The notes under the pieces are model-generated. The model searched no databases, was not told the origin of the DNA, and was given only the letters and a program-made list of their open reading frames with translations. Shown in pieces: positions 31,070 to 35,268 of a stretch of 64,000 nt of DNA. This stretch comes from an uncultured Alphaproteobacteria bacterium. Its GTDB lineage: Bacteria > Pseudomonadota > Alphaproteobacteria > CAAHEQ01 > UBA3637. The stretch covers positions 42,945 through 106,944 of the forward strand of contig CAKPYH010000002.1 in NCBI GenBank assembly GCA_934202735.1, read 5' to 3'. Positions within the stretch are counted from its first letter, which is position 1. Each line of letters starts with the position of its first letter. A program made the position numbers and the translations under genes.

Positions 31070-31975
31070 TTATATCGGTTGTGTATACTTTATAATATAT
31101 TTCCGACAACAACGGTATGTGTGGGCATCCAGCCTTAAAGACAACATGTGTCGGAATGAAAAGTGTTTAGAAGACCGAAACTTTTTATAGCCTTTTGTCA
31201 GAATAAAGGCATTCAGGCCCAACATCCATTGATGACGTGTATAAGATGTTTTTTCAATCAGGTGTTTCAGCAAGCGTAATGTAAAGCGCAGTTTGCCCGG
31301 GTATATAAAACAATGATGTTCTTTGTTCGTTAAAATCAAACGTATTAAATCTTCTGTGGGATAACCGATTTTTAATTCTTCAAAATCCAATATCCCGCTT
31401 AAATCCTGTCCTTGAAAAATCAAGTTTTTATAATGAAAATCACCATGAATGACCGATGTCAAATGATCACGATAGATTAAATCCTTTGCATCCATATCCT
31501 GTAAAATAGGATGATAACGCTTGTCTGTATGCAAGGTATTGTATATGTGAAGCCAATCATCGCCGGGGGCCACATGCATTTCTGATTTGTGTTCTTGAAA
31601 TGTATCCGTCATGTCTAAATAGGCCGCAATCAGGTCGTCCAGGTGTTGGTTGTCCAACTGATTGATAAAAACGGATTGTCCGTTCACCCATTTTAAGACC
31701 AAAATATCCCAAGGACCATGGGTAAAAGTGGTCTGCAAAGCCAGATGCGGGCCTAAATCAAAATCAGATAATGCCCTGATATTATGCCATACCCGTTCGC
31801 GTCTGTCGCGTGGAACACGGGCCTGTGCGATAAATTTGATCAGGTAAAATCCCCGTTTTGTTTGCAGGCGATAATTGACGCTGCATGATCCTGTGGCCAT
31901 GCGAACGGCGGCAGTAATTTTATCATTTAAGTGTTTTTCCAAAACGGAAACCGGTACCCCGGATAAGTCTTTCAT
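31070..31975 (-). CDS. Protein-kinase-like phosphotransferase (APH/choline-kinase fold)
   Basis: 301 aa; HGDFHYKNLIF (HGDxxxxN catalytic loop) and ILDFE (DxE/DFG-equivalent). Confidence 0.55.
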   Translation of the reverse strand: MKDLSGVPVSVLEKHLNDKITAAVRMATGSCSVNYRLQTKRGFYLIKFIAQARVPRDRRERVWHNIRALSDFDLGPHLALQTTFTHGPWDILVLKWVNGQSVFINQLDNQHLDDLIAAYLDMTDTFQEHKSEMHVAPGDDWLHIYNTLHTDKRYHPILQDMDAKDLIYRDHLTSVIHGDFHYKNLIFQGQDLSGILDFEELKIGYPTEDLIRLILTNKEHHCFIYPGKLRFTLRLLKHLIEKTSYTRHQWMLGLNAFILTKGYKKFRSSKHFSFRHMLSLRLDAHTYRCCRKYIIKYTQPI

Positions 31976-32061
31976 GCAAATCCCTTGTTGTTCTTGAATG
32001 GAAAGACTTTATCCGTTTTTTCGGGATTTGTCAACATAAAAGTCTATGCCGGAATACGGGG

Positions 32062-34260
32062 TTAATCCCCGATCTGTACCGCGGATACGGCTGCCCCAAT
32101 GTCCGAATCATGATGTATATCGGCCGGCATTTTCGAGGCCGGAGGAATCGCTGCCCGGGTTTTGTACGGCTCGGTCTTGAAATAAAGGGGGCTGTTGGCT
32201 TGAATAGGATGATCCAAGTGGCCCGCATACAGGACCAGTTGCTTGTCCGGTTTCATGGATAAAATACCGGCCCCCCCGATGACCGAGTCATCTTTCATTT
32301 TAATCTTGTGCGATCGCTCATGATAAAAGTTGAATAAATCTTTTTTCATTTTACCCGAACCCCAAAATGGTCCCAAACGACTTTCGTCCGCACTATATGA
32401 ATGTATCAATTTCGTCAGTGTCGGAATACCTTTTAACAGGGGGTTTCGGGTTTCCGGATTATTGTGCCGCTTGATGATTTTGATGGCCGAAGAACTTAAA
32501 ATGACATTTGTGGTCTCTTGACCATATTTGGCGGATATTTGGTGCCAGTCTTGCACCGAAACCAGGAACATATTTTGTTTGGCCCGTCCGAATACAATAC
32601 CATCCGAAATACTTTGCAACGAAGGCATGTGTTGAAACTCGTCTAAAATAAAACCCATCGGATAAGGACCGACACCCTGATTGGGTCCATGCTCCATTAA
32701 ATATCCCGTAGCCATATTGATAAACAGGGTACTGAGTAAAATAGATGAGTTTAAGTCTTCATATGGAACGGACATATAAATGGTGACAGGACGATATGCG
32801 CCGGTTTCGGGATCTTTAATGCCACGCAGCTGATCATAATTGAAATCATTAAAGGACGTTCGGGTACGGACCGCCGCATTTTTGAACAAGTTGACCCCGG
32901 ATAACGCCATAGAAATAACTGAACCGCGTTGCTTATCGGGCAATCCGACCACTTGATTTAATTCCAACAACGTACGCCGACCATACCCGAAATAAGCCGT
33001 TTCTAAAACAATATCGTCCAACAGGATTTTCCATGTATCTGTGTTCATGGCGGTCGGGTCCCCTTGTCGCCGCCTTAAACTCAATTCGTCATTGATACGA
33101 ATTTGGGCATTCGTGATGATATCTAATAACATGGCAAAGCAGGCATCCGATGCTCCTTGCCAGTTTTTGGGAATCGGATCCCACTTGCCGATAGGTAAAT
33201 AATTTTGCAAAGTTATCGTGTGGGCTTCGGCATTTTTAATGGCTTCCAAAACTTGCGGAAAGTCTCGCATAGAACGGTAAAAAGATAATAAAATCGCATA
33301 GTCTTCATCATCTAAACCGCCCGATTGCAAGCGCGATACAAAGTAATCATTGGCCCGGGCCTGTTCCACTTTACCGCATAAGTACCCCGTCAGGCCCGTC
33401 AGGCAACCACGTCCGGCCTTGACCCAATACGGATCTGCATTGGGGGGACCCTTGGGAATTAAAAAAGAAATCAAAGAGTCTATGTACGATTCGCGCCCGG
33501 CATGCAGGGGGGGTAGGTTTCCCCCGCCAATCGGATTCCAACACGGCCAAAACAAACCTTTTTTTTCATCATCTACACCGGCCCAGTTCATCATGAATAC
33601 AGGACCTTTTTGAGCCCGATAACCACTGGTCGCCTTGGCCAGTTCACCTTTCGGGTCGTTGATAATCAAACACGCATTGTCCATTTCAAAAATGGCCGGG
33701 ATAACAACACCGCTGGTTTTACCGCTGCCGGGCATGCCGATACAAAAGACAGAACGGGTATCGGGTAATTTCATGTTTTTATTTTTGGGTCCGAACCGCC
33801 CCACCAACAGGTATTGCCCGTCATACAATCCTATTTCTTTAACCTCATTGTCCCGTGCCGCATGAGTACTTCCGAATCGTTGATCGGCAAAAGTGTAGGG
33901 ATTCAGAACAAAAAGCCACAATTCGTACATGGTAAAGAATAACAAGGGTAATAAGGGGATTTTCCAAGCAAAAAAACTCACCCAGGTGGTATGTCGCGGC
34001 TCATTGGTGATATAAGTGTAGAGCCACATCCCCCCGCGGGTCATCGGATAGGCAAAATGTCCGTGTAATGTTTGTCCCCAAAAAGCGCGATAAGCCGCCC
34101 CCAGGGTTATATCATTCATGGGGTTTAACCAATCACAAAAGGGTAAAATGAATAGGAATAGCACCCACAGCATGACCACACCGGCCAACGCCCGACCGAA
34201 CCACCATTTAATGCACTTACGACGGATTTCAAAGGCTTCACCGAAAAAATTAAACAGCAT
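32062..34260 (-). CDS. virD4: Type IV secretion coupling protein, VirD4/TraG family
   Basis: 732 aa; N-terminal TM helices; Walker A GMPGSGKTSGVVIPAI; DPKGEL; ILDEFQHM Walker B; VirD4-like spacing. Confidence 0.8.
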   Translation of the reverse strand: MLFNFFGEAFEIRRKCIKWWFGRALAGVVMLWVLFLFILPFCDWLNPMNDITLGAAYRAFWGQTLHGHFAYPMTRGGMWLYTYITNEPRHTTWVSFFAWKIPLLPLLFFTMYELWLFVLNPYTFADQRFGSTHAARDNEVKEIGLYDGQYLLVGRFGPKNKNMKLPDTRSVFCIGMPGSGKTSGVVIPAIFEMDNACLIINDPKGELAKATSGYRAQKGPVFMMNWAGVDDEKKGLFWPCWNPIGGGNLPPLHAGRESYIDSLISFLIPKGPPNADPYWVKAGRGCLTGLTGYLCGKVEQARANDYFVSRLQSGGLDDEDYAILLSFYRSMRDFPQVLEAIKNAEAHTITLQNYLPIGKWDPIPKNWQGASDACFAMLLDIITNAQIRINDELSLRRRQGDPTAMNTDTWKILLDDIVLETAYFGYGRRTLLELNQVVGLPDKQRGSVISMALSGVNLFKNAAVRTRTSFNDFNYDQLRGIKDPETGAYRPVTIYMSVPYEDLNSSILLSTLFINMATGYLMEHGPNQGVGPYPMGFILDEFQHMPSLQSISDGIVFGRAKQNMFLVSVQDWHQISAKYGQETTNVILSSSAIKIIKRHNNPETRNPLLKGIPTLTKLIHSYSADESRLGPFWGSGKMKKDLFNFYHERSHKIKMKDDSVIGGAGILSMKPDKQLVLYAGHLDHPIQANSPLYFKTEPYKTRAAIPPASKMPADIHHDSDIGAAVSAVQIGD

Positions 34261-34269
34261 GGTTGTTTG

Positions 34270-35268
34270 TTAACTCCTGTTTTTATTTTTCTTGGTACGG
34301 GGGGCCCATCGGGTCATTTGTCCCAAGATTTTTTTATGGGGCGGCAACGTGTTGGGTACTGATTCGGGCCGCGTATCCGTATCGGGTTTATCATCGGATG
34401 TTTTGGGGACCTGCGGGGCAGGGGGACGGGCAAACTCATCTTGTTTGGGGTGGGGACGGGTCCCCCCTTTTGTTTTGGGAGGGATAACTTCTGTCTGCCC
34501 TTTGGCATAGGTGTTGAGTTCGGTATGCCGGGCTTTCAAGGTTTTCAAAGTCTCTTCTTTTAACTTTTTTTCCTGCATTTTTTCCACCAAAGCCAAGTCT
34601 TTTTGCCATTGATTCATGCTCAACTTTTGCAACGGATTGATGTAGACACCACGTAAATTGACCCCTTCTAAATTAAACATAGACAAATCCATGCCTGAAA
34701 TATCTACATGACTCATATCCAACCGGCGCAAGTCTAAACACATCAATTCGGAACGCGTCAGACAGTGAATATCAATTTTACCGCTTTCAATTCCGGCGAT
34801 TAAAACCGCCAGAACAGCCAAACGATTGTCAAAATCCGCATCCGTTTCGGCCCCGTCTGTGGTCAGATTTCGTAAATAAGTTTGGGCAAAGTCTGCCCCG
34901 GTCAGATCTGAATGACTTAAATCTGTCTCTTCCAAGTAGGCTTCGGTAAAATCGCACCCTTGGAAATCACAGGCGCAGGCCGTTGTTTTGTACAAAATGG
35001 CCCCCTTGAAGGAAGAACCGGCAAAACGTCCCCCTGAAATATCCGCATTTTTTAAATTGATACCCGAAAAGTCTTGTCCCGACAAATCTTTACCGGCACG
35101 AATATCTTGAATCAAGCGAACCGCACGCGCATCGGATCGGTAATCGGCCCGTTCGGACGGTAAAACATAGTCTTCTGCCGACAGGCCTAACGAAAAATAA
35201 ATCATATCTCGTTCACTGACTTTTGTGTCGGCCAATTTCATATTCGGTCGCTGTAATTTCGTATTCAT
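34270..35268 (-). CDS. Pentapeptide-repeat protein with Lys/Pro-rich C-terminal tail
   Basis: 332 aa; tandem A(D/N)LxX repeats (DLSGQDFSGINLKNADISGGRFAGSSFKGA...); stop 9 bp upstream of virD4 start. Confidence 0.7.
   Translation of the reverse strand: MNTKLQRPNMKLADTKVSERDMIYFSLGLSAEDYVLPSERADYRSDARAVRLIQDIRAGKDLSGQDFSGINLKNADISGGRFAGSSFKGAILYKTTACACDFQGCDFTEAYLEETDLSHSDLTGADFAQTYLRNLTTDGAETDADFDNRLAVLAVLIAGIESGKIDIHCLTRSELMCLDLRRLDMSHVDISGMDLSMFNLEGVNLRGVYINPLQKLSMNQWQKDLALVEKMQEKKLKEETLKTLKARHTELNTYAKGQTEVIPPKTKGGTRPHPKQDEFARPPAPQVPKTSDDKPDTDTRPESVPNTLPPHKKILGQMTRWAPRTKKNKNRS

Follow-up and report, generated by a model that had tools for sequence, protein, structure and literature searches.

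Export through type IV secretion systems (T4SSs) is decided by coupling proteins, and the gating of this step is only partly understood. In Helicobacter pylori, the type IV coupling protein (T4CP) Cagβ is bound at its all-alpha domain by CagZ, which regulates both the formation of the Cagβ hexamer and ATP hydrolysis by Cagβ (PMC9886983). In Rickettsia typhi, the T4CP RvhD4 binds the C-terminal tails of effectors, and both the pentapeptide-containing candidate effector cREM-4 and kinase effectors co-precipitate with it (PMC11077975). Here we report on a T4CP, referred to as VirD4a, whose gene lies on a 64-kb stretch of contig CAKPYH010000002.1 (assembly GCA_934202735.1, positions 42,945 to 106,944; hereafter the window) from an uncultured alphaproteobacterium, directly downstream of the gene of a pentapeptide-repeat protein and upstream of the gene of an APH/choline-kinase-fold protein. 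The host clade consists of common but uncultured gut and rumen Alphaproteobacteria. All three genes are located on the minus strand, and the coordinates of the open reading frames (ORFs), motifs and spacings were taken from the full window (Table 1). The three ORFs, the motifs quoted for them in an initial annotation of the window (GMPGSGKTSGVVIP, DPKGEL, ILDEF and HGDFHYKNLIF) and the spacings of 9 nt between the pentapeptide and T4CP genes and of 86 nt between the T4CP and kinase genes were all present as described there.

VirD4a and its pentapeptide-repeat neighbour form a conserved gene pair

The proposed VirD4/TraG identity of VirD4a was borne out by family matches, membrane topology, nucleotide-binding motifs and fold. 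In Pfam, VirD4a matched T4SS-DNA_transf (PF02534; 1.1e-39, 137 bits against a cutoff of 20.1), TrwB_AAD_bind (PF10412; 9.9e-11) and TraG-D_C (PF12696; 7.4e-10), whereas every NCBIfam equivalog remained far below its cutoff, and the protein is thus placed in the T4CP superfamily but in no named subfamily. Matches to the Pentapeptide and APH families, which had been suggested as a check together with the first two, were likewise obtained for the neighbouring proteins. Two hydrophobic segments (aa ~19-47 and 101-119 in a Kyte-Doolittle plot), corresponding to two transmembrane (TM) segments, are situated on either side of a helical loop, and the AlphaFold2 (AF2) model (predicted local distance difference test score, pLDDT, 81) begins with long N-terminal helices. 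The ATPase motifs were assessed in 15 homologues, down to 36% identity, covering VirD4a and the paralogue VirD4b described below. In both paralogues, G180 and K181 of the Walker A motif (GxxGxGKT) do not vary and T182 is kept in at least 90% of the sequences, and D540 of the Walker B motif (hhLD[E/D]) is invariant and always followed by E or D. The all-alpha domain is larger than in TrwB, contains the clade-specific invariant motifs ANDYF and YLPIGKWDPxPxNW, and is 45% identical between VirD4a and VirD4b, which equals the level of the nucleotide-binding domain. A closer relationship to FtsK/HerA ATPases, which had been named as the outcome speaking against a T4CP, was not found, as a Foldseek search of the model against the PDB placed Cagβ (8DOL, 1.4e-16) and TrwB (9.4e-11) far ahead of the best HerA-type/VirB4 match (2.9e-5). 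The 732-aa protein is a genuine VirD4/TraG-type T4CP, with a RecA-like domain into which an all-alpha domain is inserted. At the sequence level it is a divergent one: besides the NCBIfam scores below cutoff, a phmmer search against the PDB sequences matched no chain, identity to the best plasmid T4CPs does not exceed 26-29%, and Cagβ, the best profile match, was reached by sequence only with a profile of 15 sequences.

Homologues of VirD4a were found in 326 clusters and at 457 places in GTDB species genomes, almost only from metagenome-assembled genomes (MAGs) labelled as uncultured "Alphaproteobacteria bacterium", including Acetobacter sp. CAG:977 and probably belonging to the GTDB order RF32, from the guts of humans, ruminants, rabbit and other animals; the exact protein is also encoded on a 202,847-bp gut-metagenome scaffold in ENA. 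After ORFs had been called and clustered in 86 related loci, the pentapeptide gene was found directly upstream and on the same strand in each of the 55 orthologous loci whose T4CP ORF is full-length, over T4CP identities of 41-78% and with a gap between the two genes of 2 nt in the median and 9 nt at most. In the window, an AGGAG sequence is located 13 nt 5' of the T4CP start codon within the final codons of the pentapeptide gene, and both ORFs are in the same frame. This layout suggests, as far as the junction sequence can tell, translational coupling of the two genes. The flanks of the pair are housekeeping genes that differ by sub-clade, with mutL-pgi-lspA or pepN upstream and, in convergent orientation downstream, either a lipoprotein hydrolase gene with addA/addB or a flavodiiron protein gene. 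Among these loci, six alphaproteobacterial contigs (L032, L047, L052, L060, L078 and L082) are deposited as MAGs of Lactobacillales, Holdemanella biformis or Limosilactobacillus gorillae, names that probably go back to misbinning or mislabelling of the database entries.

The pentapeptide-repeat protein matched PF00805 in two stretches (9.9e-20; 70.2 bits against a cutoff of 20.2), and neither a signal peptide nor a TM segment was found in it. Its N-terminal region of ~55 aa is followed by the repeat domain and a helical segment, and between the latter and the basic tail at the C-terminus lies a variable region rich in Pro, Lys and Thr. In a MAFFT alignment of 59 orthologues, the repeat domain measured 152 aa in nearly all of them, and total length ranged from 318 to 589 aa owing to the variable region after the repeat domain. 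The net charge of the repeat domain is acidic (-11 in the window, family median -8). The last 25 aa, on the other hand, carry a net charge of +2 to +11 in all 59 orthologues (mean +7.1), compared to +0.5 (standard deviation 2.9) for the 971 proteins otherwise encoded at these loci, 4.3% of which reach +6. The protein belongs to no named pentapeptide family (NCBIfam scores of 19-34 bits against cutoffs of 240-500 bits): the DNA-mimic families Qnr and MfpA scored 19-30 bits against the same cutoffs, and the similarity to PipB and PipB2, effectors of a type III secretion system, was weak and far below cutoff. Plasmid relatives of the protein indicated by tblastn were rejected as generic repeat-domain matches, and the two plasmid contexts inspected were phage-like plasmids with no annotated T4CP.

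These properties bear on whether the protein is itself exported, i.e. a translocated core effector for which VirD4a would be the dedicated receptor and the basic tail the secretion signal. A search for a positively charged C-terminus had been suggested for both neighbours of VirD4a. The pentapeptide protein is strongly basic there, like VirB/D4-type substrates, but the kinase, with a charge of +4, is not distinctive. The tail, the length-variable and disordered-looking region preceding it, the fast evolution of the protein (mean distance 0.94 vs 0.49 for the T4CP) and the faint resemblance to PipB/PipB2 are all consistent with an effector, as is the finding that the pentapeptide-containing protein cREM-4 of R. 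typhi co-precipitates with RvhD4, which binds effector tails (PMC11077975). Against this, the gene is single-copy and in strict 1:1 synteny with the T4CP gene across the clade, which is usual for subunits and unusual for effectors, its repeat domain is of near-invariant length, and the gene at the corresponding place in the paralogous VirD4b module encodes a membrane protein. We therefore regard export of the pentapeptide protein as possible, if somewhat unlikely.

The third gene behaves differently. Its product matched PF01636 (APH; 1.4e-13), retains the catalytic loop HGDFHYKN intact together with a DFE motif (LDFEE), and reaches the cutoff of no NCBIfam subfamily. The gene follows that of the T4CP only in the window's own lineage (L001 and L002) and is absent downstream in all other orthologous loci having downstream sequence. 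The gap in front of it contains a promoter-like site, although the region overall showed no excess of such sites over shuffled sequence. Because of this confinement to one lineage and the promoter-like site in the gap, the conserved unit is a two-gene pair rather than the three-gene operon initially proposed; the order of the pentapeptide and T4CP genes is kept in the 55 loci, but the kinase is a local neighbour. An effector-recruitment operon of three genes, with the pentapeptide protein and the kinase both as substrates, is made quite improbable by these observations, as downstream synteny breaks exactly at the kinase gene, which does not follow the T4CP gene in any other lineage, and the C-terminal charge of the kinase is unremarkable. 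The common strand, a gap in which no terminator-like site was found, and the existence of kinase effectors that bind a T4CP (Risk1 and Risk2; PMC11077975) would agree with such an operon, and so would an APH-like homologue that two related MAGs encode beside their paralogous T4CP module. This homologue (L075:7047-8087 and L077:2337-3350) is 26% identical to the window kinase, shares the motifs HGDFHxxN and LDFEE with it and is encoded directly upstream of the VirD4b module. It represents a second, independent kinase-T4CP adjacency and a weak hint that such kinases associate with these T4CP modules.

Channel genes and a second coupling protein are encoded elsewhere in related genomes

According to precomputed Pfam annotation, the remainder of the window, as well as ~10 kb past each of its ends on contigs of the same species, consists of housekeeping genes, among them dnaG, rpoD, glgP, aroA, fba, PFOR, hisS, pgpA, lspA, pgi, queA, gatCAB, lepB, rnc, era, recO, tgt, gap, malQ, pyk and suf. 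The claim that no channel gene is present in the 64 kb held, since a tblastn search with VirB2-VirB11 of the closest plasmid T4SSs gave no match in the window at E<0.01, and the annotation contained no channel gene either there or in the ~10 kb beyond both ends. T4SS-Lon synteny, which was expected, does not hold for the window species in a gene-order check. A defence function of the three proteins was rejected because a PADLOC scan of all three gave no match at E<=0.01. The closest relatives of VirD4a outside the clade are plasmid T4CPs, as would be expected if the gene were left over from a plasmid or an integrated conjugative element in decay. However, the ORF is intact with conserved ATPase motifs, the mutL-pgi-lspA synteny with the pair is kept across species, GC content is flat across the window, no integrase or relaxase is annotated in it, and the nearest tRNA gene (tRNA-Ser, 39090-39180), ~4 kb off, is flanked by housekeeping genes. 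Such an origin appears very improbable indeed.

In two related MAGs, channel genes were located away from the pair. MAG CASEYR01 contains the pair in L035 (T4CP 73% identical to that of the window) and homologues of VirB10 and VirB11 in L065, just upstream of a module with a second T4CP, VirD4b, whose gene lies 2.4 kb downstream of virB11; MAG JAFXIF01 contains the pair in L029 and virB8-11 in L102. With the L065 VirB11 as query, identities of 70-91% were obtained among the matches listed (120 clusters). Two proteins considered as the VirB11 of the window species itself (P0152 and P0199) were rejected, as they belong to other species. Four further species contexts have a 58-aa gene, virB8, virB9, a giant virB10 and virB11 in the same chromosomal cluster, with Pfam matches to VirB8 (PF04335, 8e-17; sometimes duplicated), VirB9 (PF03524, 2e-14) and the TrbI domain of VirB10 (9.5e-31). 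In these four contexts the genes after virB11 are housekeeping genes, and in no case a T4CP gene. The giant VirB10 proteins measure 2147-2350 aa and carry the TrbI domain only at the C-terminus, after beta-flower repeats (about nine 5-fold Bflower_2 repeats of the type G-x-V-V-D-x-x-G-x-x-I-G) and an ASH/Ig-like domain. L102 has two VirB8-family genes in tandem (1-453 and 747-1439) with a 59-aa ORF between them, and the corresponding upstream protein of L089, 223 aa long, has no significant Pfam match. For the region upstream of virB8, a metagenome scan with the 223-aa VirB8-like protein yielded two contigs of ~2 kb, and a homologue search with the 103-aa end of a 510-aa gene yielded one truncated protein. 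Some strains differ from the MAG contig L102 by an insertion downstream of virB11 that comprises an autotransporter gene (923 aa) and a resolvase gene (L103:12265-15846 and L104:12263-15853). VirD4a is thus an orphan by position, as initially described, but not in the functional sense, since related genomes carry virB8-9-10-11 elsewhere together with a second T4CP.

VirD4b occurs in the same MAGs as VirD4a, is 35-40% identical to it, evolves more slowly and is closer to plasmid T4CPs (264-347 bits vs 144-261 bits for VirD4a). In its module, dnaJ in reverse and an RHH_4 gene in forward orientation are followed by the genes for a two-TM protein of 360-430 aa, which always precedes VirD4b, for VirD4b, for a protein of ~225 aa (cluster c12) and for a SUKH/SMI1-like protein. 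The c12 proteins have a conserved C-terminal half with invariant His residues and a variable N-terminus, and the c12 and SUKH/SMI1-like genes look like a toxin/immunity or effector/immunity pair. A paralogue of the two-TM protein is encoded in the window by a solitary gene at a distance of 3 kb from the T4CP pair. It retains the family-invariant residues and is possibly related to the VirD4a system. This 362-aa protein gave no Pfam or PDB match, and its single-sequence AF2 model (pLDDT 42) was unusable; profile searches of the two-TM and c12 families against the PDB yielded only chance-level matches.

The differences between the two paralogues could also mean that VirD4a, together with the pentapeptide protein, no longer takes part in type IV secretion and that the two act on their own, for example as a membrane-bound FtsK-like motor and the DNA-mimicking pentapeptide protein regulating it, with VirD4b as the only true T4CP of the T4SS. 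The stronger divergence of VirD4a, its lack of any adjacency to channel genes as compared to VirD4b in L065, the absence of a PDB match by phmmer and the acidic character of the repeat domain, shared with the DNA mimics MfpA and Qnr, would fit this idea. Yet VirD4a has retained the T4CP-specific all-alpha domain, at 45% identity to that of VirD4b, and the TM anchor, its structural matches are T4CPs and not FtsK/HerA proteins, and we know of no T4CP with a function outside a T4SS. We consider a role outside type IV secretion improbable.

Some further genes of the region were noted. Small genes of the RHH_4 family (PF13467) were found repeatedly, beside rpoD, beside hisS and immediately 5' of the VirD4b module. 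Some strains of the window species have an insertion after the RHH_4 gene, namely a gene for 950 aa that lacks Pfam domains (cluster c13; L098:15302-18154, equal to L085:1533-4385); it is absent from the window (~5640-5790) and from L099, and c13 recurs in many loci of the clade. The window also encodes two ankyrin-repeat proteins, at 37717-38973 (+; Ank_2, 1.3e-49) and 46882-47688 (+; Ank_2, 6.3e-15), the first of which is three genes away from the T4CP pair and adjoins the tRNA-Ser gene. Such proteins are unusual in a free-living gut bacterium and suggest interaction with eukaryotic targets.

Table 1 Positions of the features described, in window coordinates unless a locus (L) is given.
Feature	Position	Strand	Basis
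Pentapeptide-repeat protein, 332 aa	34270..35268	-	Pfam; directly 5' of T4CP in 55 orthologous loci
Pentapeptide-repeat domain, aa 56-207	34648..35103	-	MAFFT alignment of 59 orthologues; PF00805
Basic C-terminal tail, last 25 aa, net +8 (...KKILGQMTRWAPRTKKNKNRS)	34273..34347	-	Charge count
Pentapeptide/T4CP junction: AGGAG, TAA, 9 nt, in-frame ATG	34261..34278	-	Sequence reading
VirD4a, VirD4/TraG-type T4CP, 732 aa	32062..34260	-	Pfam, NCBIfam, AF2 model, Foldseek
N-terminal membrane region, aa ~19-119	33904..34206	-	Kyte-Doolittle peaks; AF2 helices
Walker A GMPGSGKT, aa 175-182	33715..33738	-	Homologue alignment
All-alpha domain, aa ~276-470	32851..33435	-	Homologue alignment, AF2 model
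Walker B ILDEF, aa 538-542	32635..32649	-	Homologue alignment
Promoter-like site TTGACA-17-TAAAGT, 10/12 matches	32006..32034	-	Consensus match only
APH/choline-kinase-fold protein, 301 aa	31070..31975	-	Pfam APH; lineage-specific neighbour
Two-TM protein, 362 aa, overlaps pgpA by 4 nt	27136..28224	-	Paralogue of VirD4b partner
RHH_4 genes	~5359-5637; ~24465-24743; L083:749-1027	+; -; 	PF13467
VirD4b module	L066:8885-13313; also L062, L065, L067-L083		Gene-order comparison
Giant virB10 genes (2147-2350 aa)	L089:3548-9991; L094:2934-9986; L102:3391-9984; L105:3521-9991; L065:1-6612		

A dedicated partner of VirD4a as a proposed role for the pentapeptide-repeat protein

The explanation that we favour, with moderate confidence, is that VirD4a is a relocated and diverged T4CP paralogue of a dispersed chromosomal T4SS, to which the pentapeptide-repeat protein belongs as a dedicated partner. 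The simplest history would start from an ancestral chromosomal virB-virD4 system, whose T4CP gene became detached from virB11 and was duplicated, so that the clade would now carry a vertically inherited chromosomal T4SS of the VirB type with dispersed genes, the cluster having lost virD4 after virB11. Judged from its motifs and its model, VirD4a would be a functional membrane-anchored T4CP ATPase and the faster-evolving of the two paralogues, and it may act as a second substrate-receptor ATPase feeding the dispersed channel. The pentapeptide protein, predicted to be cytoplasmic and to be co-expressed and probably translationally coupled with VirD4a, might dock on VirD4a, probably on the all-alpha domain, by means of its putative acidic beta-helix and/or its basic tail. 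By analogy with CagZ on Cagβ or with DotM/IcmSW on DotL, the docked protein might gate or specify the cargo of VirD4a.

A bound partner is favoured over cargo because the strict single-copy synteny and the near-zero gaps persist over deep divergence, because the repeat domain is of fixed length, because the VirD4b module has the same layout of a partner followed by a T4CP, in which the partner is unlikely to be cargo as it is a two-TM membrane protein, and because CagZ on Cagβ, the top structural match of VirD4a, provides a precedent. The 1:1 synteny, in which the two genes are a median of 2 nt apart, is no less compatible with a bound partner than with cargo. The effector-recruitment module proposed initially is hence retained in part: the T4CP is located away from its channel and tied to a pentapeptide protein with a basic C-terminus, but the kinase does not belong to it.

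Several observations weigh against a dedicated partner in a dispersed T4SS. The channel genes were located in the genomes of related MAGs, and it is from these that we infer a channel in the window's own genome. No VirB4, VirB6 or VirB2/3 was seen in any relative within the 10-kb flanks. A basic C-terminal tail classically marks the substrates of VirB/D4 systems, and secreted effectors with pentapeptide repeats are known. In a mirror-tree analysis, the partial correlation between the pentapeptide protein and the T4CP given pgi was 0.62, and the signal is not specific for the pair because control pairs with lspA gave similar values (0.57 and 0.65).

The acidic charge of the repeat domain also allows a more specific version, in which the pentapeptide protein would be a DNA-mimicking subunit of VirD4a that replaces the relaxosome/DNA ligand on the all-alpha domain and switches hexamerisation or ATPase activity. 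Its putative acidic beta-helix would be shaped like B-form DNA, the T4SS lineage would have given up DNA transfer, and the duplicated T4CP would be a second, separately gated entry port to one channel. We consider this version unlikely; if true, such a subunit would add a new class to the regulators of T4CPs and would for the first time connect pentapeptide-repeat proteins with the mechanics of type IV secretion.

Comparison with known systems

In the searchable literature we found no description of a pentapeptide-T4CP pair, of a duplicated T4CP with distinct partners or of a separation of VirD4a from the channel genes. Searches for orphan VirD4, for RF32 together with T4SS and for CAG-named genomes together with secretion returned no papers, and a search on RF32/CAG-239 returned microbiome surveys only. 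The new elements are a pentapeptide protein fixed to a T4CP, the duplication of this T4CP with one partner per copy, and the complete separation of VirD4a from the channel genes. The clade can be regarded as a natural experiment, in which a T4CP was detached from the channel operon and duplicated, and the two copies became tied to different proteins encoded upstream of them. As a subunit of the T4CP, the pentapeptide protein would be a new type of adaptor or regulator, and a cellular role would thereby be defined for pentapeptide-repeat proteins; as cargo, it would be a core effector of the whole clade, whose recognisable basic signal would help to define T4SS substrates in organisms about which nothing is known in this respect. 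Either way, a widespread gut lineage has a conserved chromosomal T4SS with a VirB10 of the size of CagY, and one may ask what these bacteria inject and into which target.

As for the pentapeptide-repeat protein, PipB and PipB2, which are Salmonella effectors, and the DNA mimics MfpA and Qnr belong to the same repeat family, and the repeat domain is acidic like that of the DNA mimics. Their named families, however, are far from being reached (19-34 bits against 240-500), and none of them is linked to a T4CP.

The closest relatives of the system outside the clade are the plasmid virB2...virB11-virD4 operons of Erythrobacter aureus (NZ_CP031358) and Microvirga (pMVF16-3), to which the T4CPs of the clade are 26-35% (VirD4a 26-29%) and VirB8-11 25-43% identical. 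On these plasmids virD4 is the last gene of the operon after virB11, which it follows directly in Erythrobacter and past two small ORFs in Microvirga. Unlike in the clade, VirB10 measures only 529-590 aa, VirB4 and VirB2 are annotated (Erythrobacter), and there is no pentapeptide gene annotated near the T4CP gene.

The Dot/Icm system of Legionella, in which DotL acts with DotM, DotN, IcmS/W and LvgA, resembles the present one in that a T4CP has dedicated adaptor subunits defining substrate classes. The Legionella gene order, dotM for a membrane protein and then dotL, resembles that of the two-TM protein and VirD4b. In contrast, the searches revealed nothing similar in sequence to DotL or DotM, and the channel genes of the clade are of type IVA (VirB8-11).

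The rvh system of Rickettsiales is likewise alphaproteobacterial, chromosomal and vertically inherited, with scattered loci and duplicated components, comparable to the VirB8 duplicate in L102. Unlike in the clade, rvh virD4 is single-copy and located next to virB11. Moreover, cREM-4 is a protein of ~950 aa that is unlinked to rvhD4, and the present organisms are represented by gut-lumen MAGs.

The closest parallel to VirD4a and its neighbour is provided by Cagβ (Cag5) and CagZ of H. pylori, as Cagβ is a T4CP and the best structural and profile match of VirD4a and has a dedicated, lineage-specific cytoplasmic partner. The identity between Cagβ and VirD4a is only ~15%, though, and CagZ is not a pentapeptide-repeat protein. 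The cag system also possesses a giant, repeat-rich VirB10, CagY, which is comparable in size to the VirB10 proteins of the clade. The cag genes are found together in one island, whereas the T4CP of the clade is separated from the channel genes and duplicated.

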